A stretch of DNA of 64,000 nt, taken from NCBI GenBank assembly GCA_050633305.1, contig JBOEGF010000012.1, positions 59,487-123,486 of the forward strand, read 5' to 3'. Of this stretch, positions 23,451-41,495 are shown piece after piece. How positions within the stretch are numbered: position 1 is the first letter of the stretch; every line of letters begins with the position of its first letter. The notes under the pieces are model-generated. The model worked only from the letters and a program-made list of their open reading frames with translations, was not told where the DNA came from and ran no database searches. Made by a program: the position numbers and the translations under genes. This DNA comes from Nannocystales bacterium. Lineage in GTDB: Bacteria > Myxococcota_A > Polyangia > Nannocystales > Nannocystaceae.

Positions 23451-23455
23451 CCATC

Positions 23456-24274
23456 ATGTCCACGCCCAAGCCCAAGCCAGAGCCCAAGCCAGACGCTCCG
23501 CCCGCTGTTTCACCGGCGGTGCATCGGCGTGCCGCTGCTCTTCGCGGCTATGGGAAGCCCGGCTTCACGTTGCTCGAGGTGTTGGTGGCGGTGGCGATTC
23601 TTTCGATCTCGCTCACCTCGCTGCTCACCTCGCAGATGAACGCGCTTCGGGCCACCCGGTACGCGCAGAGCATTACCGCGATGGCGTTCCTGGCCGAGTC
23701 GAAGCTCGTCGATATCGAGTGGCAGATCAAAGAGTTCGACGACGGCTGGGGCGACAACGACAAGGAGTTTGAAGGCGACTTCTCCGAGGAAGGCTGGCCT
23801 GAGGTCACCTACAAGTGCGTCGCCGACATGATCGAGATGCCGGACTACTCGGTCCTGCAGCGCTCCGCCGACGCGGCCGACAACGCGCAGACGCAAGCAT
23901 CGGGCGTCGACACCCAGGACGTTGGCGAGCAGGCGTTCGACAGCCTGGGCATGGTGTGGCCTATCGTCAAAGAGGCGATCGAGCGAGCCATCCGAAAGGC
24001 GCACTGCACGGTCTACTGGAAGGACGGCAAGGTCGAACAGGAGTTCCGCGTCGATACGTTCTGGACCGATCCCGCGGCGCTCACTCAGCTTCCCGCTCTG
24101 GGCGGTGAAGAAGGCGAAGAGGGCGACACCGCACCCGAAGACGGCGACGGGGGTGCTCCCGGGGGCGGGACGCCGGGTGGTGGGACGCCCGGCGGCCGGA
24201 CGTCAGGTGGCGGTGGCGGTGGCGGTGGAATCGGCGGTCCGATCAACATTCCCGGCCGAGGTGGAGGTCGGTGA
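23456..24274 (+). CDS. gspI: Minor pseudopilin GspI-like
   Basis: PG|FTLLEVLVAVAIL; gene order; Gly-rich tail. Confidence 0.75.
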   Translation: MSTPKPKPEPKPDAPPAVSPAVHRRAAALRGYGKPGFTLLEVLVAVAILSISLTSLLTSQMNALRATRYAQSITAMAFLAESKLVDIEWQIKEFDDGWGDNDKEFEGDFSEEGWPEVTYKCVADMIEMPDYSVLQRSADAADNAQTQASGVDTQDVGEQAFDSLGMVWPIVKEAIERAIRKAHCTVYWKDGKVEQEFRVDTFWTDPAALTQLPALGGEEGEEGDTAPEDGDGGAPGGGTPGGGTPGGRTSGGGGGGGGIGGPINIPGRGGGR

Positions 24275-24978
24275 TGAAGCGTCTTTCTCATCACCGCGGG
24301 ATGACCCTGATCGAGGTCATGATCTCGTTCGCCGTTCTGGGCATGATCATGGTGTCGGTCTGGAGCAGCTTCTCCGGGACGCTCAAGGGCATCGAAGTGA
24401 CCGAGGCGATGCAGCAGCGGTACTCGATCGTCCGCAACGGGCTCGCGCGGATGACCTCCGAGCTGTCGATGGCGTACCTCTCGAAGAACCGCCCGTTGGA
24501 CGACACGCGTCACTACACACAGTTTGAGGGCCGGGATAACTTCGACACCGACAGCCTCACGTTCTCCGCATTCTCCCACCTCCGGGTGCGAAAAGACGCG
24601 AACGAGAGCGACCAGACGGTCCTTCAGTACTTCATCGAGAAGGATCCCGAGGACAGCAGCCGTACGCATCTGTACCGCCGAGAGGCGCGGCGCCTGACCG
24701 GCGACCTGCCCGAGGACATGGAGCAGTTCTGGCCGGCCTACATCGCCATCGAGGATGTGGTCACGTTCGACGTCAAGTACTGGGACACCACACAGATGGA
24801 GTGGAAAGACGAGTGGCGTACGACCAAGGTCGACATGCAGCCCGATCGTCTTCCCACCCGAGTGAGAATCACGCTCGGAGTCGTCGACTTCGACGGGGAG
24901 GTCGTGACGTTCACATCGCAGGCCGTCGTGATGATGCAAGAGGCGATCGACCTGGGTCAGCTGGTGGGAGGCTCGTGA
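24271..24978 (+). CDS. gspJ: Minor pseudopilin GspJ
   Basis: RG|MTLIEVMIS; LYRRE; WKDEW...LPTRVRITL. Confidence 0.85.
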   Translation: MMKRLSHHRGMTLIEVMISFAVLGMIMVSVWSSFSGTLKGIEVTEAMQQRYSIVRNGLARMTSELSMAYLSKNRPLDDTRHYTQFEGRDNFDTDSLTFSAFSHLRVRKDANESDQTVLQYFIEKDPEDSSRTHLYRREARRLTGDLPEDMEQFWPAYIAIEDVVTFDVKYWDTTQMEWKDEWRTTKVDMQPDRLPTRVRITLGVVDFDGEVVTFTSQAVVMMQEAIDLGQLVGGS

Positions 24979-26372
24979 TGGAAGACCACGAACACGACCC
25001 CGCGGTCGCGGCTGACGACCAGCCGTCGGAAGGCCCTTCGCGAGAGGACGCCGACTCTCAGGCCGATTCTCAGGCCGACGCTGCCGCTCCGGTCCGTGGA
25101 CAGATGGGGATCGCGGTGCTCATGGTGCTGATCTGCTTGGCCATGCTGGCGCCGTTCACCGCGAGCTTCAACTATCAGTCCCGTGTCGACTGGCAGTCGG
25201 CGATCAACGTTCGTGACGAGGTCGCGGCCCGTCAGGTGCAGCGCGGGGCCATGCAGCTCTCGTTGTTGCTGTTCGAGATTCAGCGGATGGTGTTCAACCA
25301 GAAGCAGTTTCGCGACTTCATGGGCAACTGGGACATCACCCAGGTCGCGCCCTACCTGATGTCGGTCTTCGGGACCGAGGACGGCGCGGAAGGCCTGGGA
25401 GCGCTCGCGGGCGTCGACACCTCGGCATTCGGCGACCTTGCCATCCAGGGGGGGAGCTTCGAGTACCGGGTCTACGCGGAGAGCGGCAAGATCAACGTCA
25501 ACTGCCTGGCCAAACAGGTCAAAGCGGGCGCGCGGAACAACCCTGCGGGGCGCACGGTCGAGTCGCTCGAGGCGTTGATGCTCCCCACGATCTACAACCC
25601 GCTCTTCGAGGAAGAGAAGGCAGACGGCCAGTTCTACACACGAACCCAGATCCTGCAGGGGATGGCCGACTACATCGACGACGACACCCAGGGCTTTGAC
25701 CTGGTCAAGCTGCGCTCGACGTCCGGCTCGGAACGCTACCGCTACAGCGAGTTGCACGACCCCTACCAGCCTCGCAACGGCTACCTCGACAGTGTCGAGG
25801 AACTCCACCTGGTCGAAGGCATCGATGACGACTGGATGGCGGCGTTCGCCCACGAGCTGACCACGTACGGTGAGTGCAAGGTCAACATCAACTTCGCCAG
25901 CGCCGAGCAGATCGCGCTGGTGATCCGGCACTCCGTCGAGAACCAGTTCCGCGACAAGGTCGAGGGCGAGAACTTCTTGCTCAAGGTCATGCCCTTGGCC
26001 AACTACGTCGTCGAGTCGCGGGAGTTCTCGCTCTTCCAAGACCTCGATGGATTCAAGGAGATGGTCAGCAAGCCGGACCAGTTCATCAGCCCGCTCGCGG
26101 CGCTGGGCGGTGACGTGGAGGACAACCAAAACCTCCCGCGCATCCCCGAGGGAATTCCGGTCAAGATCCGGCCGCCCCAAGGCGAGGACAGCGAAGAGGG
26201 CTCGGGTGGTCTCACCGAGGTCGCGACGGTCAAGCCCGAGCGCACCTACACCATCGAAGTCATCACCGAGGTGGGGGCCGTGACCAAACGCCTCACCGCC
26301 ACTTACGACATGCAGTACGCGCGCTCGCAGACCCAGGGCAAGGGCGCGTGGCTGTACATTCGAGAGGACTAA
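24978..26372 (+). CDS. gspK: Minor pseudopilin GspK
   Basis: G|IAVLMVL, ESGKINVN, DYIDDD, SVEELHLVEGI, KVNINFA. Confidence 0.88.
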   Translation: MEDHEHDPAVAADDQPSEGPSREDADSQADSQADAAAPVRGQMGIAVLMVLICLAMLAPFTASFNYQSRVDWQSAINVRDEVAARQVQRGAMQLSLLLFEIQRMVFNQKQFRDFMGNWDITQVAPYLMSVFGTEDGAEGLGALAGVDTSAFGDLAIQGGSFEYRVYAESGKINVNCLAKQVKAGARNNPAGRTVESLEALMLPTIYNPLFEEEKADGQFYTRTQILQGMADYIDDDTQGFDLVKLRSTSGSERYRYSELHDPYQPRNGYLDSVEELHLVEGIDDDWMAAFAHELTTYGECKVNINFASAEQIALVIRHSVENQFRDKVEGENFLLKVMPLANYVVESREFSLFQDLDGFKEMVSKPDQFISPLAALGGDVEDNQNLPRIPEGIPVKIRPPQGEDSEEGSGGLTEVATVKPERTYTIEVITEVGAVTKRLTATYDMQYARSQTQGKGAWLYIRED

Positions 26373-26379
26373 ACCCAGC

Positions 26380-28293
26380 ATGGCGCAGAAATTCGTCGGC
26401 ATCGATCTAGGCACCCACCACATCAAGGTGGCCGTGGTGTCCGCAGGGATACGAGGGGTCCAGCTCGTCGACACCTTTGCCGAGCCGGTCGGGCCCTTGC
26501 CCCCCACCGTCGAGGGCGAAGAGCCCCCCGACCCCTTCGACCACCAGCTACGCGGTCTGTTCGCGTCTTTGCGCGCCCGTGGCCTCCTCGGTGAGACCGC
26601 CTCGGTGTGTCTCCCGTCGGGGGATGTCAGCTATCGCCTGCTCTCGTTCCCGTTTGACGACGAGCGACGCATCGCGCAAACGGTCGGTTTCGAAGCCGAG
26701 GGGCAGTTTCCCCGGCCGATCGAGGACCTGGTCTACGGCCACGTCGTCGTTCCTTCGACTGAAGGCGGCGGCCGGGCGCTCGTCGCCGCTGCGCCGAAGG
26801 ACCGCGTCAACAAGATGCACGCGGTGTTTCAACGCACCGCGTCCGAGATCAAGGCGGTCACGACCTCGGGCATCGCGCTGGCGGCCGTCGGCAAGGTTTC
26901 CTTGCCGGTGGCGACTCCTCAGATGGCCGAGGACGGTCGTGCGCCCTGCGTGCTGTACGTCGATCTCGGGCACAAGCACACGCAGTTCGTCGCGATGGGC
27001 GCCAAGGGCCCGCTCGCGATCCGCTCGACCCGACGTGGGGGCCGTCAGCTGACCGCTGCCATCGCACGCGCGTTCTCGATGGATACGTCGAGCGCGGAGG
27101 CGGCAAAACACACCGACGCATTCCTGCCCCACCGCGGCATGGCGGGCTTGTCCGAGGCCCAGATGCAATCGGGCACGATCGTCGCGAAGGCTTTCGAGCC
27201 GATCTTGCGCGAACTCGAGCACACGCGGATTTGGCTGCGTTCGACCTACCACCTCGAGGTCTCACAGGTGGTGCTGCTTGGAGGCGGGGCGAATCTCTCC
27301 GGCGTGCGCGAGTATGTGACCGAGCAGACGGGTCTGGCCGTCACGGACTTCAAGCCCAACGCGTCTGGTCTGAAGACCGGCACGGTGAGCGGGGCGGACC
27401 TCGGCGAGTTTGCGGCCGCGCTTGGTGCGGCCTACGGCGCCGCGCGGCGCCCACTCCTGCAGCTTCGAGACGCCGAGGGCGGCGTCGTCGAGGGAGGCTG
27501 GGTGCAGGAGAAAATGACCGGTCTCGTCGCGATTGGCGTGGCGGTGATGGCATTCGGCGCGCTGGATACGATCGCCCGGGTCAAGGCAGCCGACGCTCAA
27601 CTCTTGGCCTACGAGGACGAACTCGCGACGGCGACCGAGGCCGCGTTTGGGGAGGCGGTCGGCGTCAGTGACGTCAAAGCGGTTCTCGATGGCGCGGAGG
27701 GGGCTGACCTGACCAGCCTCGTCCCCGAACGGGGGGCGCTGGAGACCCTCGCGCTCATCGTCGACGCGGCGACGCCCAGCGACATCGCCGACAAGCCTCC
27801 TCCGGCTCCAGTGCCGCCTCCAGGGACAGACCCCGGACTGCTGCCCGCGGGGTTCGGTGCGCCTGGCACACCGGCCGTGGGTCCCGACGGGCTCCCCTTG
27901 CTGGGACCCGACGGTCTCCCTCTCGACCCGGCCCTCGCTGAACCAAAGCCTATCGGTCCCATTCCGGCCGACGCAGGGATTGTTCTCGTGGACGAGTTGA
28001 CTCTGTCCTTGGTGGATATTCGGCAGCTCAAAGTCGAGATCAAAGCGGGCGCGAACACCTCCTCTGCGCAGGACAGGCTTGCCGCCAAACTCGCGGGACT
28101 GGGGTGCATCTCCAACGTCTCCAAAGGCAAGGTCCGAGGCGAGGAGCGCAAGACGTTCCAGATGGAGATGGACAACAAGTGCTTCTTCAAGAAAGCGGCG
28201 GAGGACGACGAAGCCGAACTCGAAGAAGAGACGGCCGAACCCGAAGGCGCGGACGGGTCCGTGGACGAACCTGCGGAAGAGAAGGACGAGTAG
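26380..28293 (+). CDS. gspL: GspL / PilM-like actin-fold platform protein with TM and periplasmic domain
   Basis: VGIDLGTHHIK, VDLGHKHT, LLGGGANL, ALGAA, then a TM segment; gene order. Confidence 0.75.
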   Translation: MAQKFVGIDLGTHHIKVAVVSAGIRGVQLVDTFAEPVGPLPPTVEGEEPPDPFDHQLRGLFASLRARGLLGETASVCLPSGDVSYRLLSFPFDDERRIAQTVGFEAEGQFPRPIEDLVYGHVVVPSTEGGGRALVAAAPKDRVNKMHAVFQRTASEIKAVTTSGIALAAVGKVSLPVATPQMAEDGRAPCVLYVDLGHKHTQFVAMGAKGPLAIRSTRRGGRQLTAAIARAFSMDTSSAEAAKHTDAFLPHRGMAGLSEAQMQSGTIVAKAFEPILRELEHTRIWLRSTYHLEVSQVVLLGGGANLSGVREYVTEQTGLAVTDFKPNASGLKTGTVSGADLGEFAAALGAAYGAARRPLLQLRDAEGGVVEGGWVQEKMTGLVAIGVAVMAFGALDTIARVKAADAQLLAYEDELATATEAAFGEAVGVSDVKAVLDGAEGADLTSLVPERGALETLALIVDAATPSDIADKPPPAPVPPPGTDPGLLPAGFGAPGTPAVGPDGLPLLGPDGLPLDPALAEPKPIGPIPADAGIVLVDELTLSLVDIRQLKVEIKAGANTSSAQDRLAAKLAGLGCISNVSKGKVRGEERKTFQMEMDNKCFFKKAAEDDEAELEEETAEPEGADGSVDEPAEEKDE

Positions 28294-28296
28294 ACG

Positions 28297-28884
28297 ATGG
28301 CAGCCGCAGTCGCACCCAAGGCCGGGTTCCTCTCCAGCCTCTCTCCGCGTGAGCGCACTTTGGTGATGGCGCTGGTGCTCACGTTCTTCGTGATGGGCAC
28401 CCTCGTGCTGTTCTATTTGCGGTCGCAGACCCTGCGCGAAACCGACTCCGCTGTGCAGGCGCACAAGCTGGCGCTCGAGTCGGTCTACACCCGCGGCGCG
28501 GTCTACAAAGACCGTCTCGAGTCCAAGAAGAAGCGGGAGAAAAACATCCCGAGCACTCCGGTGCAGTTCTTGACGTTGGTCGAGGCCGCGCAGGCCGGGG
28601 TCGAAGGCGTGACCGTCTCCGACCAGGAGGAGGTCACTCCTCAGACCCTCGATGGCAACCTCATCAAGCGGTCGTTCAAGTTCAAGCTTCGCAGCGTCAC
28701 GCTGGAGCAGGCGATGAAGTTCTTGACCGCACTGGAGAGCGAGCCGGGGAGGATCATTCTCACCGAGCAACTCGCTGTCCGCTCGCCGTCCTCGGCGGAG
28801 GACCGGCTCAACCTCGACGTCGTCATCTCCACCTGGGAGCGTGAGGTCGAAGAAGAACTCGAAGACGAGGAAGAGGAGGAGTAG
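28297..28884 (+). CDS. gspM: Type II secretion protein GspM
   Basis: LSPRER followed by TM; VTLEQAMKFL; gene order. Confidence 0.75.
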   Translation: MAAAVAPKAGFLSSLSPRERTLVMALVLTFFVMGTLVLFYLRSQTLRETDSAVQAHKLALESVYTRGAVYKDRLESKKKREKNIPSTPVQFLTLVEAAQAGVEGVTVSDQEEVTPQTLDGNLIKRSFKFKLRSVTLEQAMKFLTALESEPGRIILTEQLAVRSPSSAEDRLNLDVVISTWEREVEEELEDEEEEE

Positions 28885-28887
28885 TCG

Positions 28888-30423
28888 ATGGACCAGTCGA
28901 TCACACGAGGTGAGATTCCCGCCGACGCTCCCGCAGTCACCCGGAGCCGAAACTGGGGCCGGACGCTGAGGCGCGGCTTCGGTTGGGGCATGCTCGGCCT
29001 GTTCTTCTTCCTGCTCTTTGCCTGGATCACGCTCCCAACCGAAGCGATCGCGTGGCGCATCAGCCACGAGGCCAAGAAGGCCGGCTACGTCGTGGAGATC
29101 GAGGACATCTCGGTCATGCCGTGGGGTTCGGCGACCCTCGAGAATGTCACGTGGACGTTCGAGCCGAGTCGTCCCGATTCACCGCCACAGCAGTACTTCA
29201 TGGAGGAGGTCGACATCTCGATCGGCCTGCTGTCGTTGCTGGCCGGAACGGTGGATGTCGAGGTCGAGACCGAGCGGGAGGACGGGACGATCATGGCCCG
29301 CTACGTTCAGGGCTCGAGCGAGACCACCGTCGCGGTCGACATCGACGGGCTTCCGCTCTACGACGTTCCCAAGGCCGCGCAGGCGCTCAACGTCCCTCTG
29401 TACGGGCTTCTCAACGTCAAAGCCGACATCACGGCGCCCGACGGCAAGTTCTCCAAGGCGGAGGGCAAGATCACGCTGGCATGTTCGGCGTGCCGGGCCG
29501 GGGACGGGGACTCCAAGCTCTACGTGCCCGGCGGCAGCAAGGCGTTGCGCGATGGCATCACGCTCCCCGAGATCGACTTCGGCACGCTCACGGGCGAGCT
29601 CATCGTCAAGAAGGGGGCAGCGACCATCGAGGAGCCGATTGCGACCGAGAGCGACGACATGATCATGTCGCTCACCGGCAAGCTCAAGCTCAAGGATCCG
29701 TTCCAGAAGTCTCGCTTCAACATGCTGATGAAGCTCGAGCTGACCGAGTCCTTCCTCAAGGAAGCCGAGCGGGTCGCGTTTATCTATCGCGGCGCGAGTG
29801 CCAACGCGAAGCTCGACCCGCCTGAGCGAGGTCTGGGGTTCAAGCTGGGGGGCCCCGTCTCCAAGCCGCAGTTCCGCGGCGTGAAGAGCAAGTCGACCGC
29901 GGAGAACCTGGCCGAGCGTCGCAAGAAACGGCGGGATCGAGATCGCAGACGAGCAGAGCGTCGCGCCAAGCGAGGCAAGAAGTCCAAGAAAAGCCCGAAG
30001 AAGGACGACGCGAAGAAAGACGCGGCGGACGACAAGAAGGACGAAGACAAGAAGGACGACGAGCGTCCAAATCTCAACATCGCGCCGCTGGACGATGAGC
30101 CGAGCGCCGATGAGCCTCGTCCGTCCTTGCCTCCCACGGAGGATGACGATGTCGAGGTCTTCGATCCGAACGAAGGTGGCCGCGATGAGCCTGCCAATGA
30201 CCAGCCCTCCGACGACGAACGCTACGGGCGGGAGGACGGACAGGGCCAGGACGACGGCCAAGGGCAGGACGACGGCCAAGGGCAGGACAACGGCCAACAA
30301 GACGACGGTCAGGATGGCCAACAGGACGATGGCCAACAAGACGACGGTCAGGACGGGCAAGCGGACGGCGGCCAAGACGACGGTCAGGGCCAGGGCGGCG
30401 GCAGCGGTGGCCAGCGGCAGTAG
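28888..30423 (+). CDS. gspN: Type II secretion protein GspN with long charged, disordered tail
   Basis: TM followed by TLPTEAI, beta-rich body, last gene of the cluster. Confidence 0.7.
   Translation: MDQSITRGEIPADAPAVTRSRNWGRTLRRGFGWGMLGLFFFLLFAWITLPTEAIAWRISHEAKKAGYVVEIEDISVMPWGSATLENVTWTFEPSRPDSPPQQYFMEEVDISIGLLSLLAGTVDVEVETEREDGTIMARYVQGSSETTVAVDIDGLPLYDVPKAAQALNVPLYGLLNVKADITAPDGKFSKAEGKITLACSACRAGDGDSKLYVPGGSKALRDGITLPEIDFGTLTGELIVKKGAATIEEPIATESDDMIMSLTGKLKLKDPFQKSRFNMLMKLELTESFLKEAERVAFIYRGASANAKLDPPERGLGFKLGGPVSKPQFRGVKSKSTAENLAERRKKRRDRDRRRAERRAKRGKKSKKSPKKDDAKKDAADDKKDEDKKDDERPNLNIAPLDDEPSADEPRPSLPPTEDDDVEVFDPNEGGRDEPANDQPSDDERYGREDGQGQDDGQGQDDGQGQDNGQQDDGQDGQQDDGQQDDGQDGQADGGQDDGQGQGGGSGGQRQ
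30235..30395 (+). repeat. Coding low-complexity repeat (GQDDGQ / QDDGQ) in the GspN tail
   Basis: GGGCAGGACGACGGCCAA-type units visible. Confidence 0.8.
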
Positions 30424-30465: not shown

Positions 30466-32169
30466 TCAGCCTGCCCAGTGGTGAGGCCGGCCCCCAACGA
30501 TTGTCCCAAGAACCGGCGCGTCTCGAATCCGCGCCGGTTCTTGTTCGTCGAGGAGTCTCCCAAAACAGGTCAGGTCAGCTTGCATGCCCACCTTGATCTG
30601 CCCAAGTTCTTCTTCCCGGTGTACGGCGTAGGCAGCCTCCTGCGTGAAGCCCCGAACTGCGCGGTCCAGACTGACGCGTTGGTCGGCGAGCCACCCTCCC
30701 TCGGGGGCTCCGGTTGCGTCCCGCCGGGTGATGGCGGCGTACAGGCCGTGGGTCACATCGGGTAGCTCCACCGGGAAGTCACTTCCGAAGCAGAGGTGCG
30801 CGTCCGCGTCCAACAGACTGCGCCATGCATACGCGCCTGCGAGGCGTGAGACGCCAACTCGCTCGGCGACCCAGCCCATGTCCGACGTCGCGTGTGTCGG
30901 TTGCATCGATGCGATGACACCAAGCTCGGCGAAGCGGGGGATGTCGGAGGTGTCGAGGAGCTGGCAATGCTCAATGCGGGGTCGTGGGTCTCGCCGCGGC
31001 GCCTCCCCTAATGCGTGCTCGTACACGTCGAGGACGGTGCGGTTGCCTGCGTCGCCGATTGCGTGGGTGGCGACCTGCCATCCTCCTCGCATGGCGGCCA
31101 CGACGATTCGGCGGAGTGCAGCCTCGTCGTGCTGCATCAGCCCGCGATGGCCTGCTCGGTCGGCGTAGGGGTGGAGTAGGGCGGCACCGCGGCTCCCCAA
31201 CGCCCCGTCGGCGTAGACCTTCACGCCAGCGAGGGCGTAGCGGGATCCGCGCAACAGAGGGTCTGGCGCCTGGCCCTGGAGGTCTTGCATGAACCAGGAC
31301 TCCGCGGCGTAGGCGTGCACGCGGATCCGCAGAGCTTCGGAGTCGCTGGCCATACGTCGGTACGCAGCATCCGTGCCCGAGCCAATGCCCATGTCGTGCA
31401 CGCCCGTGAGTCCGCGTTCCAGGATGTGTTCTTGAGCCGCCTCGATCCGGGAGCGGAGGTCCGCGGGGGATGGCTGGGGGACGCTGACGAGCTCCATCGC
31501 GGTGTCGATCAGGACACCGGTTGCCGCTGCGGAGCTGTCGCGCAGAATCTCTCCACCGCTGGGGGTTGGGGTATTCGGACCGATCCCCGACTCTCGCAGC
31601 AAGGCGGCGTTGCCCCAAGCCGCGTGTCCATCCACGCGTCGAAGCCAGACCGGACGGTCCGGGAACGCTTGGGTGAGCGGATGGTGGGTCGGCATCGAGG
31701 CTTCCGGCCATAGGTTCTGGTCCCACCCGCGTCCGACGACCCACCCCTTGGCAGGGGCGCCCGCCTGCAGCCTGCGGACCACCTCTTGCGTTGATTCGGC
31801 GCCGCGAAGGTCCACTGTCGCCAGCGATTCTCCGAGCCCCACGAGGTGGGCGTGCGCATCGACGAGTCCGGGCGTCACTGTGCCCCCGCCCGCATCGAGG
31901 ACCACGGTACTCGGGCTTCGCAGGCCTTCCACCTCCGACTCATCTCCGACCGCGACGATGACCCCGTCGCGGATGGCCAGGGCGCGGGCGCGGGGCCGTG
32001 CTGGGTCGAGCGTCCAGACGTCGCCTCCGCGGACGATCATGGATGCGTTGGGCCGACCCGATGGGCTCGGTTGTGCCGGCTTGGGGGCCGAGGTGCCCTG
32101 AGCGGGTCGACATCCCGCGAGCGGGCTCGACAACAGCATCGTGAGCATCGAACGACGAGTGGGACGCAC
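30466..32169 (-). CDS. Exported amidohydrolase (amidohydrolase_3, YtcJ-like); Tat/lipoprotein signal
   Basis: TPGLVDAHAH, RVDGH, KVYADGALGSRGA, HAIGD, RIEH, SMQPTH, GSDFPVE; N-terminal TRRSML...LAGC. Confidence 0.92.
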   Translation of the reverse strand: MRPTRRSMLTMLLSSPLAGCRPAQGTSAPKPAQPSPSGRPNASMIVRGGDVWTLDPARPRARALAIRDGVIVAVGDESEVEGLRSPSTVVLDAGGGTVTPGLVDAHAHLVGLGESLATVDLRGAESTQEVVRRLQAGAPAKGWVVGRGWDQNLWPEASMPTHHPLTQAFPDRPVWLRRVDGHAAWGNAALLRESGIGPNTPTPSGGEILRDSSAAATGVLIDTAMELVSVPQPSPADLRSRIEAAQEHILERGLTGVHDMGIGSGTDAAYRRMASDSEALRIRVHAYAAESWFMQDLQGQAPDPLLRGSRYALAGVKVYADGALGSRGAALLHPYADRAGHRGLMQHDEAALRRIVVAAMRGGWQVATHAIGDAGNRTVLDVYEHALGEAPRRDPRPRIEHCQLLDTSDIPRFAELGVIASMQPTHATSDMGWVAERVGVSRLAGAYAWRSLLDADAHLCFGSDFPVELPDVTHGLYAAITRRDATGAPEGGWLADQRVSLDRAVRGFTQEAAYAVHREEELGQIKVGMQADLTCFGRLLDEQEPARIRDAPVLGTIVGGRPHHWAG

Positions 32170-32301
32170 GGCGAGATGCTAGAGCAGAATGCTGACGACA
32201 ACCATGTGGCGATAGCTTCGCACGCACAGGGCCCGTGCCGAGAGACTTGACCCGCGGACGAGCGCCCGTCACCCTTAGTCAGGTTCGCTGCTTGGGTTTG
32301 T

Positions 32302-32853
32302 ATGGATTTGAAACGACTGCCACCGTCGCTGTTGGTCGCGCTGGGCCTTGCGGGCTGTGGTCCTGCAGTGGACAGCGGGACTTCGGGGGGCGACTCGGGC
32401 GGGTCTGCAACCAGCACGGGAGGCTCGAGCGGCACCGTTGGGCCTTGTTTGACCCCTTGGGAGACGACCAGTGGCGCGACGACGTCGAACTCGGTGGGCC
32501 CGTGCTTGGGGATGGTCACGACGGGACCGTGTCTCGATGTGGGCTCGACGGTGGGCCCTTGCCTTGCGCCGCCGCTTGGCACCAGCAGCGGAACTGACAC
32601 CGATACCGATACGGACACCTCCGGTGGCGGAACCGACTCCGGCACCACGGGTGGGGCCGACACGGGCGCGGGGTCATGCCTCGTCCCGCCCGACGCGTTC
32701 CCGGAGCCGGTCGGGGACTGGGCCGGAGCGCCCGACACACCGGCGCCGCAGACCCGATCGCTGATCCTGCGTCGGCTCCGTCAGGCGGGTGTCCTCCCCG
32801 ATGATGTCGCGGCTCGCCTGCCGCTTCACCCCGACGACAACCCCTCGGACTGA
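32302..32853 (+). CDS. Putative multi-core RiPP-like precursor / lipoprotein 1 (4x GPCL plus GSCL)
   Basis: Leader MDLKRLPPSLLVALGLAGC (lipobox); GPCL at aa 47, 66, 75 and 85, GSCL at 124; C-terminal RRLRQAGVLPDDVAARL; no folded domain recognisable. Confidence 0.7.
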   Translation: MDLKRLPPSLLVALGLAGCGPAVDSGTSGGDSGGSATSTGGSSGTVGPCLTPWETTSGATTSNSVGPCLGMVTTGPCLDVGSTVGPCLAPPLGTSSGTDTDTDTDTSGGGTDSGTTGGADTGAGSCLVPPDAFPEPVGDWAGAPDTPAPQTRSLILRRLRQAGVLPDDVAARLPLHPDDNPSD

Positions 32854-32874
32854 CGGGCCCACGCGGACGTACAA

Positions 32875-32905
32875 CCGAAGCACTGCCGAAGCACTGCCGA
32901 AGCAC
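32875..32905 (+). repeat. 11-bp direct tandem repeat CCGAAGCACTG, about 2.8 copies
   Basis: CCGAAGCACTG CCGAAGCACTG CCGAAGCAC, ending 1 nt before the ATG at 32907. Confidence 0.9.
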
Positions 32906-32906
32906 A

Positions 32907-33377
32907 ATGGATCTCAAGCGCCTTCCTCCCTCACTCCTCGTCGCCCTGGGCCTCGCCGCTGCGGGTGGGGACAACATGGGCTGTACGACCAGCGCCTGTC
33001 TTGACGTGGCCGGCCCGGAGACGACGACGGGTCCGTGCTTGGATGTCGTCGCGCCGACCACCAGCGGAGAGACCACCGGCGCTGGATCCGACGGGTCTAC
33101 TGTCGGCCCGTGCTTGGACGTTGCGCCAGGAACCACCACGTCATCCACGAACCCGACCTCTGGCACCGCGACCGGGTCGAGTTCCGGCACGGACACGGAC
33201 ACGGACACGGACACGGACGGTGGGACGGATTCTGACGGCGGGACCGACTCCGGCACCAGCACAGGAGGCCTCCCTAATGGTGGCGAAGCTGCGGAGCGAG
33301 GGTCGGTTCTTGGGCGCTTGCTCGATGCAGACATCTTGCCACCCGATGTCGCGGCGCGTCTCCGCTCGAAGGACTGA
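32907..33377 (+). CDS. Putative multi-core RiPP-like precursor / lipoprotein 2 (SACLDV, 2x GPCLDV)
   Basis: Same 17-aa leader as the previous gene; CLDV three times; C-terminal RLLDADILPPDVAARL. Confidence 0.7.
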   Translation: MDLKRLPPSLLVALGLAAAGGDNMGCTTSACLDVAGPETTTGPCLDVVAPTTSGETTGAGSDGSTVGPCLDVAPGTTTSSTNPTSGTATGSSSGTDTDTDTDTDGGTDSDGGTDSGTSTGGLPNGGEAAERGSVLGRLLDADILPPDVAARLRSKD

Positions 33378-33379
33378 GC

Positions 33380-34555
33380 ATGTCGGTCCTCGAAATCTCC
33401 GAACTCGAGTCTGATCCACAGTCTCAGATCCCAAGACTCGACTTCGAGCTCACGCCCGGCTGCGACCACAAGTGCGCCCATTGTTACAACGTGTGGACCG
33501 CGGACGAGGGCGACGCGCAAGCGGGCTACGACACGGGCGGCCAACTGCGAACGCCCGAGTTCAAGGCGATGATGACCAACATCGTCGGGCAGACCCAAGC
33601 CAAGCACATCACGATCACGGGTGGGGAACCGCTGCTGCGCAAGGATGCCGTCGACATCATCGAACACGCATGCCGCAGCGTGGATGTCGTCACGCTGATC
33701 ACCAACGGGAGTCACGTCGGCCCTGACACCGCGGCTCGTTTCGGTCGCGCGGGTCTGCGGCAGGTTCAGCTGACGCTGCTCGCAGGCGACAGGGTCGAGC
33801 ATGATCGGCTCAAAGGCGCGGAATGCTTCGACGACACGATTCGGGCTGCGGTGAACCTGACCGAGGCCGGCGTGCCCGTGCAGGTCTGCTTTGTCGCGAT
33901 GCACGAGAACTGGCATCAGTTCGAACGTGTGATGGAGCTGTGTTTCGCCTTGGGCATCCGGGGAGTCTCGTACAATCGAATGTCTCCCACCGGCGGAGCC
34001 ATTCACCACATCGCCCGCCTCATGCCCACGGTCGAGCAGATCGAGTCCAACCTCGACACGGCAGAGCGACTGGGTCGAGCGTGGGGTATCGCTGTATCCA
34101 CCGCGATGCCGATCCCGCCGTGTCTGATCCGCATCGAGAACTACAGCTGGGTGCGTTTCGGGTTCTGTAGCACCGGGTCGTCTTCGCCGAATATCGTCAT
34201 CGATGGGAAGGGCAACGTGCGCAGCTGCAACCTCGCCGGCGGGGTGATGGGGAACGTGCTCGAGCAGCCATGGTCGGAGATCTATGCGGTCCCCTACCAG
34301 CGCGAGTTCAAGCGCAACGTTCCTCAGATGTGCCGCGGCTGCGCCTACGAATCGTCGTGTCAGGGCGGCTGCAAAGAGAGCGGGTTTGCGACGTTTGGCG
34401 ATCATGCGCATCCCGAGCCCCTGTTGTGGCTGGCCCAGAACCCCGACTGGCGCGAGAAGGTCGGCGAGGAGGTCGATCAGTCGATCATTCCGCTGCGTAG
34501 GCTGACGCGCCCGCCGAGTCGCAAGACCGAGGGAGCCCCGGTTGGCGACGCGTGA
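33380..34555 (+). CDS. Radical SAM protein with SPASM domain (peptide-maturase type)
   Basis: CDHKCAHC (CX3CX2C), TGGEPL, TNG; SPASM C..GNVRSC..GNV..CRGC-X5-CQGGC. Confidence 0.92.
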   Translation: MSVLEISELESDPQSQIPRLDFELTPGCDHKCAHCYNVWTADEGDAQAGYDTGGQLRTPEFKAMMTNIVGQTQAKHITITGGEPLLRKDAVDIIEHACRSVDVVTLITNGSHVGPDTAARFGRAGLRQVQLTLLAGDRVEHDRLKGAECFDDTIRAAVNLTEAGVPVQVCFVAMHENWHQFERVMELCFALGIRGVSYNRMSPTGGAIHHIARLMPTVEQIESNLDTAERLGRAWGIAVSTAMPIPPCLIRIENYSWVRFGFCSTGSSSPNIVIDGKGNVRSCNLAGGVMGNVLEQPWSEIYAVPYQREFKRNVPQMCRGCAYESSCQGGCKESGFATFGDHAHPEPLLWLAQNPDWREKVGEEVDQSIIPLRRLTRPPSRKTEGAPVGDA

Positions 34556-36776
34556 CCCGTGCGTACTCCTGATCTCGCCGGGGATCATCAAGTGGACCGA
34601 CATGGACTTCGGTCTGCCTCACTTGGTGAGCATGGGCGGGTACGTGCAGCATCACACCGGGGTTCGCGTCGAGTTGCTCGACCTGAACTACGAAGGCGGC
34701 GACCACAAGCAGCTCCTCGAGACCATCGAGTCGCTGGGGCCGCATCTGGTCATCGGGCTCTCCACATATTCCAGCTTCGACTACATGCGGGTGATGGCGC
34801 TCGCCCGCTTCCTCCGGCGCCGTTTTCCGAACACGCCGCTGGTCACGGGGGGTTATCACGCCAGTGCGTTGCCCACCGATGTCGTCTTCGAGGGCTCGCC
34901 CTTTGATGCCGTCATCGTAGGGGAGGGGGAGAAACCCCTGCTGTCGATGGTCCAGGTGCTGCTCGGGGGCGGACGTCTGGACAAGCAGATCTGGGGACCC
35001 GATCAGATTCAGGACCTCGACGCGCTGCCGCCGTACCAGTGGCAACTGCTCGACCGCTACTGGCCCCGCGCGACGGACATCGGTCGCAAGTTCCAGATCT
35101 ACCTCGCACGTGGTTGCCCGTACCACTGCACGTTCTGCATGGAGCGGGCGAAGAGTGGCTACAAGTGGCGGGCGTACTCCTCCGAGCGCGCCGTGTCTGA
35201 GCTTGTCCGCCTCTCGCAATGGACCGACCTGAAGAACTGGGTCATCAACATTGCGGACCCCTTGTTCGGGTTCAAGCGCAGCTGGAGGCGTGAGGTGCTC
35301 CAGGGCATCATCGAGCACGACTTGCTGCCTCGGCAGTACTGGACGCTGACGCGCTCGGACGACCTCGATGACGAGGACGTGAGCCTCTTGGCACGGGCAC
35401 GGTTCTCGATCGGCATCGGCCTCGAGAGCGGGAGCCCGAAGATGCTCACGCTGATGCAGAAGGGCAACAAGCCCGACGCCTACCTCTCCGCGATGCAGCG
35501 CCTGGCTCGCCTCAGCCGCAAGCACAAGCTGACCTGGGCCTCGAACGTGATCGTCGGGCACCCCGGCGAGTCGATCGAATCGATGCGGGAGACCCAGCGT
35601 TACCTCACCGAGCTGTTCACCTCCGCGAAGGAAACCTGCGGGTGGCTGTCGATCGACGCGTTTCGGCTGTACCCCGGAGCGCAGGTCCACGAGGCCATGG
35701 AGACCTACGGCCAGCTTCACGGCACTCGATTCCACCATCCTCAGTGGTGGAAGAGTTGGTACGACGGCGCGTTTGCAGCCGAGCACATCGACCCCAGCGC
35801 AGAGGTGTCCTTCGAGGATCGGGTCGAGTTTATGCATGAGGCCTACGCCCCGTTGACCGCGGAGATCGCGGAGCGCTTCACCGGTCAGGGCCGCAGCGTT
35901 GACCGTGTGTTTCGCCGCAGCCTCAACGACCAAGCCCGACAGATGAGCAAGGCGAGCAAAGAAACAACCCTGCGTCGGGCGGCCCGCGTCCGCGCGCTGG
36001 CCGAACGTCGAGAGGACGAGCAAGGGACCGTTACCGCGGTGAACTTTCCCATCGGTCTGCATCTCAAGGATCCGTGGGTCCGGGAGCGCGAGTCGGCGGT
36101 ACGGCGGCTCCTCGACGAAGGCGTGCTGAGGACCGCGGACCTGGTCGAAGCGCTTCTGCAGGTCTCTCCACAGGCGCACATGTCTCGGGAGGCGGCGGCG
36201 ATGCTGCTCGGGGGAGAGCACGCGTGCAGTGAGGTCGAGGGGGAACTCGCCATCTCGCTCAGCCTCCGAACCACGGCGATGGGTCTCGAGGCGCTCGAAC
36301 CGGCGCTCGGCGACCGTGTGGTCGATGTGACCGCGCGCAGCGGGTACTTGGCTGCCCTGTTGTCTCTGCTCGTCGGGGAGCAGGGGGAGGTGCTCGCGAT
36401 TCATCCGGTCGGAGGGTCCTTGGACGAGGCGCGGGCCTTTGCGAAGGGCTTGGAGCCGTGCAGGAACGTTCTGGTCACGGAGGCGGAGTCCGCCGGGGTG
36501 ATGCTGGAAGGTACCTGGGACGGGGCGTGGATCGGCGCCGCGTTGCCGCGGGTTCCCCAGGGCGTCGCCACCCACCTGACCGAGCCCGGCGGACGGCTGA
36601 TCACCTTTGTCGGACCGCGGTTTCGACCCCAGGATCTGGTTGCACTGACGCGCCACGGAGAAGGGCTCGAAGAGCGCCGGGTGGCCAAGGTGGCGGTCCC
36701 GGTGCTCGCGGGACCGGGCGGGTGGATCCAACACCAACCTTCCGCCACGGTGGCCCGATCCTCGGTACGTCCGTGA
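34542..36776 (+). CDS. Cobalamin-binding radical SAM enzyme fused to a C-terminal PIMT (Pcm)-like methyltransferase domain
   Basis: B12-binding region (GGYHAS, VGEGE), ARGCPYHCTFC, GLESGS; C-terminal LEPALGDRVVDVTARSGYLAALL and LTEPGGRLI; TTG start with GAGGGAG SD. Confidence 0.85.
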   Translation: MATRDPCVLLISPGIIKWTDMDFGLPHLVSMGGYVQHHTGVRVELLDLNYEGGDHKQLLETIESLGPHLVIGLSTYSSFDYMRVMALARFLRRRFPNTPLVTGGYHASALPTDVVFEGSPFDAVIVGEGEKPLLSMVQVLLGGGRLDKQIWGPDQIQDLDALPPYQWQLLDRYWPRATDIGRKFQIYLARGCPYHCTFCMERAKSGYKWRAYSSERAVSELVRLSQWTDLKNWVINIADPLFGFKRSWRREVLQGIIEHDLLPRQYWTLTRSDDLDDEDVSLLARARFSIGIGLESGSPKMLTLMQKGNKPDAYLSAMQRLARLSRKHKLTWASNVIVGHPGESIESMRETQRYLTELFTSAKETCGWLSIDAFRLYPGAQVHEAMETYGQLHGTRFHHPQWWKSWYDGAFAAEHIDPSAEVSFEDRVEFMHEAYAPLTAEIAERFTGQGRSVDRVFRRSLNDQARQMSKASKETTLRRAARVRALAERREDEQGTVTAVNFPIGLHLKDPWVRERESAVRRLLDEGVLRTADLVEALLQVSPQAHMSREAAAMLLGGEHACSEVEGELAISLSLRTTAMGLEALEPALGDRVVDVTARSGYLAALLSLLVGEQGEVLAIHPVGGSLDEARAFAKGLEPCRNVLVTEAESAGVMLEGTWDGAWIGAALPRVPQGVATHLTEPGGRLITFVGPRFRPQDLVALTRHGEGLEERRVAKVAVPVLAGPGGWIQHQPSATVARSSVRP

Positions 36777-37504
36777 ACATCGACTTCGTTCGCTGGGATC
36801 AGGCGGCTCGGCTCTACGCCGTACTCGCGCGGCTGGACCTCGGCGCGGATGCGGCCTCGCTCTACGATGCCCGGCTCGCGACCGGGCCCTGGGTGGAATC
36901 GCTGTTGGACGCGTATCAAGCGGCGCCGAAACGCCTGCTGCTGCACGGAGCCCCGCTCGTGCTGTCCGAGGAGGGTCGCCCGCTCGAAGTTGACATACCA
37001 CCTGCTGGGCTGTCCGACGCGTCGGGTCGCCGTCTGTGGGCGGCGACCCTCGAGGGCTTGGAGGCGATCGCGAGCGAACCGCTGCAGTACGCGGAGGTCC
37101 CGGCCGAGATCATCGAACCGCTCGGGGTGCTTCGCGCTGCGCTCTGGGAGCGGGTGGGCCCGCCGCCACCGCTGACCGTCGTGGACTGTCCTGCGTTGCG
37201 CCGTGCCGGTCGAGCTGTGCAGTCGACCCATGGCAGGCTTGTGGGGGTCTCGCTCGCCGAACCGGCGGAGCATCTGCTCTGCCAGGTTCTGCACGAAGAA
37301 ACCCATGCCCTCACAGACCCCGTCGTTCGGCAGGCATGGAGCGCGGCAGGTGCGGGTCGCGACACGTCGGTCGGCAGCCCAGGGTATGCTCGGCATCAGG
37401 CGCTCGAGGCCGCCGCGGTTGAGGTCGGCGACGCGCTCATCGCTGCCCGCGCGCCGCAGTGGAGCGACGCGTATCGACGGTGGCGGGCGCGGTTCGGCAA
37501 GTGA
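36773..37504 (+). CDS. HExxH-motif protein (metallopeptidase or HExxH oxygenase candidate)
   Basis: GTGA overlap with the upstream stop; QVLHEETHALTD plus downstream HQALE. Confidence 0.65.
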   Translation: MNIDFVRWDQAARLYAVLARLDLGADAASLYDARLATGPWVESLLDAYQAAPKRLLLHGAPLVLSEEGRPLEVDIPPAGLSDASGRRLWAATLEGLEAIASEPLQYAEVPAEIIEPLGVLRAALWERVGPPPPLTVVDCPALRRAGRAVQSTHGRLVGVSLAEPAEHLLCQVLHEETHALTDPVVRQAWSAAGAGRDTSVGSPGYARHQALEAAAVEVGDALIAARAPQWSDAYRRWRARFGK

Positions 37505-37514
37505 GGAATGGCGC

Positions 37515-37847
37515 CTACGCGGGCAGCCCGATGTTTCGCAGCACGTTTCGCAGCTGCGGCTCCATCATCGAGCCGCTCTGGGTCCCGGCGAGCTCGCCGT
37601 CGGCGAAGCACAGCAAAGTCGGCACGCTGCGTACGCGATAGTGCGTGGCAAGGTCTGCGGACGTGTCCGCATTGACCAGCAGGAGTTCGAGCTTTCCCTC
37701 CGAGCTGGCGACGACGCGCTCGACGATGGGTTTGTAGGTTTTGCATGGCGCGCACCACGGTGTGGAGAACAGGACCAGTAGCCCCTTGGGCGGCGCTTCC
37801 AGCGTTCGCGCGAACGCGGCTGGGTCGAGGGAGAGAAGATTGCTCAT
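37515..37847 (-). CDS. Thioredoxin family protein
   Basis: FSTPWCAPCK, YRVRSVPTL. Confidence 0.92.
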   Translation of the reverse strand: MSNLLSLDPAAFARTLEAPPKGLLVLFSTPWCAPCKTYKPIVERVVASSEGKLELLLVNADTSADLATHYRVRSVPTLLCFADGELAGTQSGSMMEPQLRNVLRNIGLPA

Positions 37848-37853
37848 CAAGGG

Positions 37854-37913
37854 CTCAGGTGCCGAGCAGAGCTGGCCTTACAGGCGTAAGATCTTGATTC
37901 CTGAACACCTGAG
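37854..37913. promoter_or_regulatory. Back-to-back ECF-type promoters GTAAG-N15-CACCTGAG, one on each strand
   Basis: Plus strand: GTAAG(37886)-15nt-CACCTGAG(37906-13)-6nt-ATG. Minus strand: GTAAG(37881)-15nt-CACCTGAG(37861-54)-6nt-ATG(37847). Confidence 0.7.
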
Positions 37914-39887: not shown

Positions 39888-41495
39888 GTGTCCGCTTGGC
39901 TTCAGGCCCGCCGCACGACCGCGCTGGCCGGGCTCGCGTTTCTCGGGTCGCTCTGTTTTGGCCTGGCCTCGCCTCCGAGTTCTGTACCTGTGCTCGCGTG
40001 GTTGGGATTCATCCCCCTGCTGCTGGCTGCGACCGGGATGGAGGGACGTCGTGTTCGCGCCCAGTTCTTCGTCGGCTGGGTGGGCGGGCTGTGTACCGGG
40101 TTGGTGGGCTTCCCGTGGATCGGACACACACTGGAACGTTTCGCCGAGTTTCCCGCATGGCTCGCCGCTGTGGGCACGTTCCTGTTCGCGGCATACACAG
40201 CGGTCCCGTATGGCCTGTGGCTGATCGCACTGGCCAGAGGACCCAAGGCGGGTCCGTGGCGGTTGTTGTGGGCTGCCGCCTCGTGGGTGGGTCTGACGTC
40301 CTTGTGGCCCGCCTTCTTCCCGTACACCCCGCTCATCGGCCTCTCACAGCTCCCCCCGTGGATTCAGGCGGCGGAGTTGGGTGGGGTGCCGGCGGTCGAG
40401 TGCATCGTCCTCGGGTTCGGCTATGCCGTCGTGTCGGCGGCGCTCTCGGGGACGATGCGGGCGCGCAGCGTCGCGCTCGGTATCGCAGTCGCCATCCCCT
40501 CGCTGACCTGGCTTGCAGGGACATGGCGTCTCGAGAGCCTCGACGCCCAAGCCGAGGGCGCACCCGTCGTGCGATTCGGCATCATTCAACCAAACACGGC
40601 GCTGTTCGCCAACCAGCGCATCGACAAGATGAAGCGGCTGTGGTCGATGTCCGCCGCCGCCGAACGAGAGGGGGCCCAGGTCATCGTGTGGCCCGAGGCG
40701 GGGATCTATCCGTGGGTACAGGAGCGACCGTTCCTCAAGGACGGTCACGGACTTCGGCGCGTGCTCCAGGCGCACAAGCTTCCGACGATCCTGGGGGTCG
40801 CGACGCGCAAGCAGGGCGACCCCTACGAGTGGAACACCGCCGTGGTGATGAACGCCGAGGGCGAGGTCGAAGGCACGTTCGACAAGACGGTCCTCGTGCC
40901 CCTCGGAGAGGAGATCCCGATTGTGGATCCCGACTGGGCGCGCTCGATCGTACCCGCGATGTCGCACAACCACGCCGGGGAGGAGCCCGCGCTGTTCCCG
41001 GTGACGCTGGCCGACGGTTCCGCCTCCTACGGGGCGGGCCCGCTCATTTGCTACGAGGATATTTTTGGGGACTTCGCGCGCGAGGTCGCGGGTCAGCCAG
41101 CGGGCATCGAGTTCTTCGTCAACGTGACCATCGACACCTGGTTCGGCGACACCGCGGAGCCTTGGGAACACCTCGCCCTGGCGCAGTTCCGCAGCGTGGA
41201 GCACCGGATCCCCATGGTCCGAAGCGTCGCGGCGGGGGCGAGCTCGGTGATCGATCACGGCGGCCGTCTGGTCGCTTCGGTTCCTGTCACCGATCCCTTG
41301 CCCGGGCATCCGATCCCACCGCAACGCCTGGTCCACGACGTGGCGCTGCCGAGAAACACCGCGCGCTCACCGACGATCTACGCGCGTGGGGGCTGGCTGC
41401 TGGGTCTGCTGTGTTCCATCGCGACCGTGTTGGTGCCGCTTGCTGCCGTCGTTCGGAGCAAGTATCGTCCGCGCGCGAGCGACGCGACCTCCTGA
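39888..41495 (+). CDS. lnt: Apolipoprotein N-acyltransferase
   Basis: N-terminal TMs; IQPN, VWPE, DKTVLVPLGE, ICYED, WFG, FRSVE. Confidence 0.92.
   Translation: MSAWLQARRTTALAGLAFLGSLCFGLASPPSSVPVLAWLGFIPLLLAATGMEGRRVRAQFFVGWVGGLCTGLVGFPWIGHTLERFAEFPAWLAAVGTFLFAAYTAVPYGLWLIALARGPKAGPWRLLWAAASWVGLTSLWPAFFPYTPLIGLSQLPPWIQAAELGGVPAVECIVLGFGYAVVSAALSGTMRARSVALGIAVAIPSLTWLAGTWRLESLDAQAEGAPVVRFGIIQPNTALFANQRIDKMKRLWSMSAAAEREGAQVIVWPEAGIYPWVQERPFLKDGHGLRRVLQAHKLPTILGVATRKQGDPYEWNTAVVMNAEGEVEGTFDKTVLVPLGEEIPIVDPDWARSIVPAMSHNHAGEEPALFPVTLADGSASYGAGPLICYEDIFGDFAREVAGQPAGIEFFVNVTIDTWFGDTAEPWEHLALAQFRSVEHRIPMVRSVAAGASSVIDHGGRLVASVPVTDPLPGHPIPPQRLVHDVALPRNTARSPTIYARGGWLLGLLCSIATVLVPLAAVVRSKYRPRASDATS

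Follow-up and report, generated by a model that had tools for sequence, protein, structure and literature searches.

Introduction

AtsB/anSME proteins are SPASM-type radical S-adenosylmethionine (SAM) enzymes that lack a RiPP recognition element (RRE; RiPP, a peptide that is ribosomally synthesized and then modified post-translationally), and they modify a cysteine or serine residue in a short motif of signal-bearing sulfatases before export (core motif C/S-x-P-x-R, located within the sulfatase fold). A related arrangement is presumably captured by the NCBIfam model TIGR04133 (‘rSAM_w_lipo’), in which a radical SAM/SPASM protein is paired with a lipoprotein; our literature search for this pairing returned no paper describing it and a single unrelated mention. 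The bufferins and oxazolins are RiPPs with Sec signal peptides that are modified by multinuclear non-heme iron-dependent oxidases (MNIOs), and lipoproteins are predicted for ~16% of the Buf2 precursors; that report raises the problem of premature export, discusses signal masking and mentions preliminary data in which the signal peptide belongs to the recognized sequence (PMC12452194). How enzymes confined to the cytoplasm modify proteins that carry export signals is an open question that the same report raises explicitly for the bufferins (PMC12452194). CrpC from Methanococcus voltae is a SPASM enzyme that installs ranthionine crosslinks on the cysteine-rich CrpA (PMC13692751), while TvgB (TVGG repeats) and TigE (TIGSVS repeats) are presented as SPASM cyclopropyl synthases with an RRE at the N-terminus and a GYW motif as ligand of auxiliary cluster I (PMC10878394). 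Here we analyze a 64,000-nucleotide stretch of DNA from a Nannocystales bacterium (contig JBOEGF010000012.1, positions 59,487 to 123,486 of the forward strand; hereafter the window), in which two tandem genes encode candidate substrates (precursors 1 and 2) that begin with the same 17 residues and are followed by genes for a radical SAM/SPASM enzyme, a fusion protein with a second radical SAM domain and a protein with an HExxH motif.

The original prediction, made from this DNA alone, held that the 17 residues form a signal peptide that doubles as a leader recognized by a maturation enzyme, and that the product is lipid-anchored and RiPP-like. We find that the cassette is real and that this interpretation is partly supported; no description of either the precursor family or the cassette was found in the literature.

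Results

The precursors share an N-terminus that is conserved in protein but not in DNA

Both precursor genes lie in tandem on the plus strand, and MDLKRLPPSLLVALGLA forms the start of both translations (Table 1). As stated in the original prediction, 12 of the 17 codons differ synonymously between these identical segments; codon comparison confirms this and reveals 14 nucleotide differences, all of which can be read as synonymous steps. In a Nei-Gojobori count 12-14 of ~15.2 synonymous sites differ, i.e. they are saturated, and the two differences that the method scores as non-synonymous arise solely from path averaging at two TTG->CTC leucine codons. Gene conversion was ruled out as the source of the identity, because the DNA of the two 17-mers differs at 12/17 codons. 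Beyond the signal, which is fully identical, the mature parts of the two precursors are 38-51% identical. An old duplication, as had been proposed, is supported by the saturated synonymous sites and by the presence of both precursor-1-like and precursor-2-like copies in all three genomes of the genus that carry the cassette.

To place this conservation on a scale, a control set was built from the organism’s own 11-Mb genome, in which 1,708 open reading frames (ORFs) satisfy the lipobox rule (a pattern modeled on the PROSITE PS51257 rule, with the cysteine at position 15-35). Among 286 pairs of paralogous predicted lipoproteins, where paralogy extends over at least 60% of the mature length, signal peptides share a median identity of 0.19 (95th percentile 0.375), and identity reaches at least 0.8 in one pair. 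In that pair (C20_-_0_43351 and C42_-_2_21128), 18/22 signal residues are identical and the mature proteins share 45.8% identity. The premise that ordinary signal peptides diverge quickly therefore holds in this genome, the two precursors are outliers, and the identity of their 17-mers is not due to chance. If signal peptidase II removes the peptide, selection on it must operate ahead of cleavage, either within the cytoplasm or at the membrane, and on this point the reasoning of the original prediction holds.

In its physical properties the 17-mer looks like an ordinary lipoprotein-type signal, and it is its fixed sequence that is unusual. Both precursors have Lys4 and Arg5 followed by 13 uncharged residues, in keeping with the charge criterion for lipoprotein signals (Lys or Arg within the first 7 residues, then an uncharged hydrophobic stretch), and the length and hydropathy of the family’s signals lie inside the 5th-95th percentile range of 256 control signals from the same genome. 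Median values for family and controls are 19 and 20 for the cysteine position, 13 and 13 for the length of the hydrophobic region and 1.69 and 1.80 for hydropathy. The Pro-Pro pair of the family signal is rare, occurring in 2/256 controls. The lipobox rule is satisfied by 56 of 68 family members, with the cysteine at position 18-22 in 53, and precursor 1, for which a canonical lipobox (L-A-G-C19) had been pointed out, is among those that pass.

The precursors define a family with three conserved modules

Neither precursor matched any Pfam or NCBIfam model, and a sequence search returned 54 relatives, one of which is assigned by NCBI to a Nannocystaceae metagenome-assembled genome. An alignment of 56 sequences contains three conserved modules, namely the N-terminus, (T)(V)GPCL repeats and a C-terminal motif (R..L.R.L..G.LPPDVAARLR), with a Thr/Asp/Gly-rich linker between the repeats and the C-terminal motif. 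In an alignment assembled without motif-based selection, the invariant residues are M1, L14, G15 and L16, and P7 reaches a conservation of at least 90%. Among 57 full-length members the N-terminal consensus is nearly fixed (M-[DN]-[LI]-[KR]-[RK]-L-P-P-S-[LMI]-L-[VL]-A-L-G-L-A), although these members were picked by an anchor pattern that inflates the L-G-L columns; the family-specific signal motif is [KR]-L-P-P-S-x-L-x-A-L-G-L. Mean pairwise identity is 0.67 over residues 2-17, 0.56 over the C-terminal block and 0.46 over all alignable columns, and the family thus has the layout of a RiPP leader, a conserved N-terminal segment followed by a more variable core. The sequence-specific selection on the N-terminus that the original prediction had postulated is borne out by these values and by the four invariant residues.

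The core is built around Cys-Leu dipeptides. From 252 C-L motifs we derived the consensus [TS]-T-[VT]-G-P-C-L-[DSG]; each substrate contains 2-6 copies of T-[VT]-G-P-C-L, which account for all of its cysteines apart from the one behind the signal, and exactly one cysteine lies outside a C-L dipeptide in 63/68 unique members. The linker is acidic or Thr/Gly-rich and disordered, and the C-terminal motif is amphipathic. Precursor 1, the top match of the family profile in its own genome (2.2e-41), has four GPCL motifs, one SCL, a linker rich in Thr-Asp and Gly and the C-terminal helix motif; in precursor 2 the 17-mer is followed by AAGGDNMG-C26, one ACL, two GPCL motifs, a linker of Thr-Asp repeats and the C-terminal motif. 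A search of the full library with the precursor profile yielded 414 clusters (at 50% identity) at E <= 0.001 and 188 at E <= 1e-10.

Two further proteins of the genome resemble the family in part. In an orphan third paralogue (C42:17085-17572, with an orthologue at G001:C66), the head (MQTVRIPMAILLALELVGTTAC) has diverged and is accompanied by five PCL motifs, linkers rich in Pro and Glu, and the C-terminal motif; no radical SAM gene lies nearby. A larger protein (C10:271476-272324) has two PCL motifs, one in its orthologue at G045:C34, followed by a MYXO-CTERM-like arrangement of G-C-G-x, a membrane segment and RRRR, and then by L..L...LPxDVxxRLR.

Precursors and SPASM enzyme occur together within the order

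Orthologues of the SPASM enzyme, defined by at least 44% identity, are found in 11/72 genomes of the order, and 1-3 precursor genes adjoin them, upstream or downstream, at all 11 loci. Other matches represent a different radical SAM enzyme of ~31% identity, and precursors are absent at all 19 of the loci around it. Strong matches to the precursor profile (E <= 3.5e-14) occur in exactly the same 11 genomes, with weak partial matches in three more and no strong match in the other 61. Including the loci from other families described below, the SPASM orthologue adjoins a precursor at every locus examined. The fusion protein is kept in most cassettes, but in one genome (G068, locus L047) its PCMT part remains and the B12/radical SAM part is gone, and in another (G016, locus L043) it is absent, while a precursor starting with MDLNKLPHYMLVALGM, the SPASM enzyme and the HExxH protein are kept. 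Because the fusion is reduced in the former and absent in the latter, the constant core of the cassette is the precursor, the SPASM enzyme and the HExxH protein; the HExxH gene was found in 17/18 cassette loci scanned for it, and no additional conserved partner gene was seen among 15 cassette loci.

Given this distribution, the N-terminus is under purifying selection that is specific to its sequence and linked to the cassette. The conservation might instead be unrelated to the cassette, reflecting a general requirement of export or sorting or the slow divergence of a young family. Such cases exist, since a neighboring amidohydrolase lipoprotein retains 17/20 signal residues between two genomes of the same genus (G000 and G001) and the one exceptional control pair retains 18/22; the former means that conservation of a signal within a genus carries little weight. 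However, the motif was not found on any other protein of the organism’s own genome, it occurs only in cassette-bearing genomes, 285 of the 286 control pairs behave otherwise, and saturation of synonymous sites between the copies means that the family is not young. We therefore consider conservation for reasons independent of the cassette highly improbable.

Some orthologous cassettes in other Myxococcota families have precursors with a different N-terminus

The best 150 profile matches contributed 128 new sequences, of which ~80 have the N-terminal motif of this window’s precursors (A-type), ~28 have another head (C-type) and ~20 are mostly truncated. C-type precursors are longer and start with a lipoprotein signal of ordinary kind and variable sequence that ends in [LV]-[AT]-A-C; past the signal they contain a conserved Gly-rich hydrophobic segment ending in T-Q-x-G-C, 5-10 PCL motifs and the same C-terminal motif. 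Their heads, for example at L098 9418-10143, have an invariant lipobox cysteine, T-V-S-x-x-G-G-x-x-G, a hydrophobic stretch of ~24 residues and T-Q-x-G-C. Only the PCL repeats and the C-terminal motif are common to the C-type precursors and those of this window. Mean identity among C-type sequences is 0.29 in the first signal segment and 0.46 in the C-terminal block, and the question posed with the original prediction, whether homologous leaders vary across genomes, thus has a divided answer: they are conserved across the A-type family (0.67) and variable in the first signal segment of the C-type.

These precursors nevertheless belong to the same kind of cassette. At nine of the ten C-type loci fetched, the precursor has as direct neighbors a SPASM orthologue (50-68% identity) and an orthologue of the fusion protein (54-63%), and an HExxH protein is encoded at eight of the nine (34-45% identity in seven, split matches in one). 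A-type motifs are also not restricted to the order, as precursors linked to the cassette in another Myxococcota family (f37) carry them beside SPASM enzymes of 58-66% identity. The SPASM enzyme of this window is up to 68% identical to C-type-associated enzymes and 58-66% identical to A-type-associated ones from outside its own family. Orthologous enzymes thus appear to serve two types of head, and PCL repeats together with the C-terminal helix are the only parts universal in these sequences. For 24 SPASM enzymes, a quick tree contains one branch that splits the A and C labels, with a support of 28; its deep forks are unresolved and the labels follow taxonomy. Because of this low support and the confounding by taxonomy, the tree speaks neither for nor against enzyme and N-terminus having co-evolved; a single change of head type would fit it.

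These data bear on the idea that the 17-mer is a recognition leader, to which the SPASM enzyme or the HExxH protein binds, masking it from Sec until the cysteines are modified, after which export and lipidation follow. Several lines of evidence fit this idea: selection on the sequence goes well beyond that on ordinary signals, motif and cassette co-occur strictly within the order, the motif is kept in the second Myxococcota family and in the minimal cassette of G016, and a peptide that is cleaved off can be selected only before cleavage. The preliminary bufferin data also point this way, as the signal peptide there is reported to be part of the sequence recognized by an enzyme-partner complex (PMC12452194). 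On the other hand, none of the cassette proteins showed an RRE or another domain for peptide binding, orthologous cassettes serve C-type precursors that lack the motif and vary in their first signal segment, and the SPASM enzyme is as similar to C-type-associated enzymes as to A-type-associated ones from outside its family. The claim of the original prediction that a cytoplasmic enzyme binds the leader is weakened on the first two of these counts, and because of the C-type cassettes direct binding of the signal by a maturation enzyme is less likely to be the main mode of recognition. We regard recognition by way of the leader as unlikely. Also doubtful, in our estimate, is a dual purpose of the 17-mer, in which it would be a Sec/Lsp signal and at the same time a docking or holding site for a cytoplasmic cassette protein that times radical SAM modification against export, leading to a ‘lipo-RiPP’, a Cys-repeat protein that is lipid-anchored and carries multiple modifications. 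The GPCL repeats and the C-terminal helix are better recognition candidates than the signal.

Enzymes of the cassette and their surroundings

In the SPASM enzyme, matches to the Pfam models Radical_SAM (9.2e-24) and SPASM (7e-5) were obtained, and nine cysteines (C28, C32, C35, C263, C283, C318, C321, C327 and C331) are invariant in 11 orthologues. It reached no NCBIfam cut-off (TIGR04133 scored 49.9 bits against a cut-off of 425), and among solved structures PqqE (3.3e-18) is closest to it in sequence. With the radical SAM domain starting at about residue 22, an N-terminal RRE would have no space. The fusion protein is composed, in this order, of a B12-binding domain, a radical SAM domain, a stretch to which no domain was assigned (~395-515) and a domain resembling protein-isoaspartate methyltransferase (PCMT). 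A PqqD-like RRE had no Pfam or NCBIfam match in the three cassette proteins, of which the fusion includes the stretch at ~395-515 that has no domain assignment.

The HExxH protein, which no Pfam or NCBIfam model matched, is a putative zincin-like metallohydrolase. Residues H174, E175, H178, D182, H208 and E212 are invariant, with H174, E175, H178, H208 and E212 counted across 36 sequences, and its structural model is confident (pLDDT 94.6). In the ESM Atlas it led only to unnamed clusters and to a DUF4932 lead at 17%. One homologue (P0108, 397 aa) carries a PCMT domain (PF01135), so that HExxH and methyltransferase modules are sometimes fused, a hint that they cooperate. When residues 1-30 of precursor 1 were modeled in complex with the SPASM and HExxH proteins, ipSAE values were 0.01 and 0.00 against a mark of 0.32 and the outcome was ‘no answer’, a result that weighs neither for nor against binding.

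Table 1. Positions of the precursor genes, their elements and the cassette enzymes within the window.
Feature	Position	Strand	Description
Precursor 1 gene	32302..32853	+	183 aa; N-terminal motif with lipobox LAG-C19
Precursor 1, codons 1-17	32302..32352	+	MDLKRLPPSLLVALGLA
Precursor 1, lipobox Cys19 codon	32356-32358	+	
Precursor 1, core	32431..32571	+	Cys49, 68, 77 and 87, each inside (T/S)(V/T)GPCL
Precursor 1, additional S-C126-L	32677-32679	+	
Precursor 1, conserved C-terminal motif	32755..32820	+	RSLILRRLRQAGVLPDDVAARL
Precursor 2 gene	32907..33377	+	156 aa; 17-residue N-terminus same as precursor 1
Precursor 2, codons 1-17	32907..32957	+	peptide identical to precursor 1
Precursor 2, Cys26 codon	32982-32984	+	
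Precursor 2, conserved C-terminal motif	33297..33362	+	RGSVLGRLLDADILPPDVAARL
Radical SAM/SPASM enzyme	33380..34555	+	391 aa; CxxxCxxC with C28/C32/C35; full SPASM cysteine set
Fusion protein	34542..36776	+	744 aa; B12-binding, radical SAM and PCMT-like domains
HExxH protein	36773..37504	+	243 aa; GTG start overlaps upstream stop (GTGA)

Two short repeats are present in the precursor region. A perfect 11-bp tandem repeat (CCGAAGCACTG, 2.8 copies) occupies 32875-32905 and ends one base ahead of the precursor 2 ATG, and the hexamer CACGGA (5.2 copies, 100% match) at 33188-33218 (also 33185-33248) codes for the Thr-Asp run of precursor 2, where it is a likely hotspot for changes in linker length. 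In a scan of 32000-37900, promoter-like sites were absent and a single terminator-like site, fewer than expected by chance, was found. Directly upstream, on the opposite strand, is the gene for the lipoprotein amidohydrolase (30466-32169), and a putative Lnt-like ORF (535 aa, 39888-41495) lies 2.4 kb downstream of the cassette; synteny of both is limited to the genus. Farther upstream, 23318-30423 contains ORFs with prepilin-type N-termini (e.g. ...GFTLLEVLVAVAILSI and ...GMTLIEVMISFAVLG) followed by larger genes, and from the translations it resembles an operon for type II secretion or pseudopilins.

Discussion

From the observed anatomy of the precursors, the selection on their N-terminal motif, its co-occurrence with the cassette and the composition of the latter, we tentatively propose that the two genes are old tandem paralogues encoding substrates of a previously undescribed Myxococcota cassette, in which head and C-terminal helix divide the labor. 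Our inferences on export, on the sequence of steps, on the chemistry and on which protein touches the signal are as follows. The cytoplasmic iron-sulfur enzymes would modify the Cys-Leu motifs prior to export, and for substrate recognition they would rely chiefly on two features common to all precursor types, the repeats of the core and the C-terminal helix (…LPPDVAARL). The SPASM enzyme would most plausibly act on cysteine, as the invariant G-P-C-L points to chemistry at this residue; the B12 enzyme would most plausibly methylate, and the abundant Asp residues may be targets of the PCMT domain. The HExxH protein possibly cuts off the C-terminal helix. The N-terminal motif would then drive Sec/Lsp export, giving a lipid-anchored product in the case of precursor 1. 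Generic Sec targeting would not explain the conservation of the signal, which may instead have a job before cleavage that is linked to the cassette, either delaying export of the precursor or managing its hand-over until it is fully modified.

Several observations weigh against this model. Precursor 2 (N-M-G-C26) and 11 other members fail the lipobox rule, and the spacing from L-G-L to the cysteine ranges from 1 to ~10 residues, sometimes with D/E between. Because of these failures and the variable spacing, the cysteine may not always be a lipidation site; the same variation in distance and the intervening acidic residues mean that L-G-L is not merely part of the lipobox. The lipid-anchored product of the original prediction is thus limited to precursor 1, for which anchoring is plausible from its sequence, because precursor 2 fails the rule. 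In the C-type precursors a second hydrophobic segment, rich in Gly, comes after the lipobox cysteine, and their repeat domain could therefore stay in the cytoplasm, which would argue against export as the common fate. The C-terminal motif is not exclusive to the cassette, because the larger C10-type protein has the same kind of motif and its orthologue sits in G045, a genome without a SPASM orthologue. Finally, the fold matches of the HExxH model are weak (YbeY at Z 6.7, Wss1 and M1 aminopeptidases at Z 5-6, in the common range of VIA-align), and Foldseek against the PDB returned nothing at E <= 0.001.

Some of these observations would be accommodated if the N-terminus were a membrane anchor or insertion element, with the repeat domain tethered on the cytoplasmic side and the motif contacting a partner in the membrane. 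In C-type precursors the lipobox is followed by the hydrophobic stretch of ~24 residues, which as a transmembrane helix would return the chain to the cytoplasm; the C10-type protein has its C-terminal motif on the cytoplasmic side of a membrane segment; and the distance between L-G-L and the cysteine is variable. The A-type hydrophobic stretch, at ~13 residues, is typical of signals in this genome and too short to span the membrane, however, most members (56/68) conform to the lipobox rule, and the positive charges ahead of the stretch and acidic residues behind it correspond to the orientation of an export signal. A membrane anchor at the N-terminus therefore seems quite improbable to us, and the division of labor between head and helix remains the model that we tentatively favor.

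The cassette represents an unannotated, phylum-wide family, and it offers a clean natural test case for cytoplasmic modification of exported proteins: its signal is kept nearly letter for letter across deep divergence, while sister cassettes have an ordinary signal, and the GPCL repeats and the C-terminal helix provide two conserved handles that are separable from the signal. As the combination of enzymes is unusual, the chemistry at the Cys-Leu motifs may be new.

Compared with described systems, the cassette is similar in concept to the TIGR04133 pairing, in that a SPASM enzyme is genetically paired with a lipoprotein substrate, but the bit score far below the cut-off excludes membership. 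It is also not an anSME system: in contrast to the motif within the sulfatase fold, the GPCL repeats lie in a disordered chain, the core motif differs, and only the SPASM region of anSME matches the profile of this enzyme (E 2.9e-6), PqqE being nearer (3.3e-18). Like TvgB and TigE substrates, the precursors contain several copies of a short T-V/I-G motif, and those enzymes are iterative and sometimes accompanied by a second radical SAM enzyme (PMC10878394). Membership among the cyclopropyl synthases, as these are characterized there, was rejected, since GYW is absent from the sequence and from the consensus of 11 members and there is no RRE or N-terminal extension. With CrpC/CrpA the locus shares a SPASM enzyme encoded beside a protein-sized substrate with cysteine repeats, although the substrate relationship is predicted here, and the N-terminal parts of CrpA aid engagement, a further likeness; thioether formation by CrpC provides a precedent, on a protein substrate, for SPASM action on cysteine (PMC13692751). 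Unlike CrpC, which has an RRE, and CrpA, which has a leader and an N-terminal domain in that account, no RRE was found in the proteins of this cassette, and the precursors’ N-terminus is a lipoprotein-type signal.

The closest parallel is with the bufferins, whose cysteine-containing precursors likewise carry an export signal at the N-terminus instead of a classical leader. The bufferin enzymes are an MNIO (DUF692) and a partner with DUF2063/RRE, whereas radical SAM enzymes are encoded here, the core motifs differ, and the cassette additionally has a conserved C-terminal motif and an HExxH protein (PMC12452194). Neither MNIO/DUF692 nor DUF2063 was present among the eight neighboring proteins scanned with Pfam and NCBIfam. 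The concept of a signal that serves as leader already has a precedent in this different enzyme class; a dual-purpose signal in the present cassette, if true, would be the first radical SAM counterpart of the bufferin idea.

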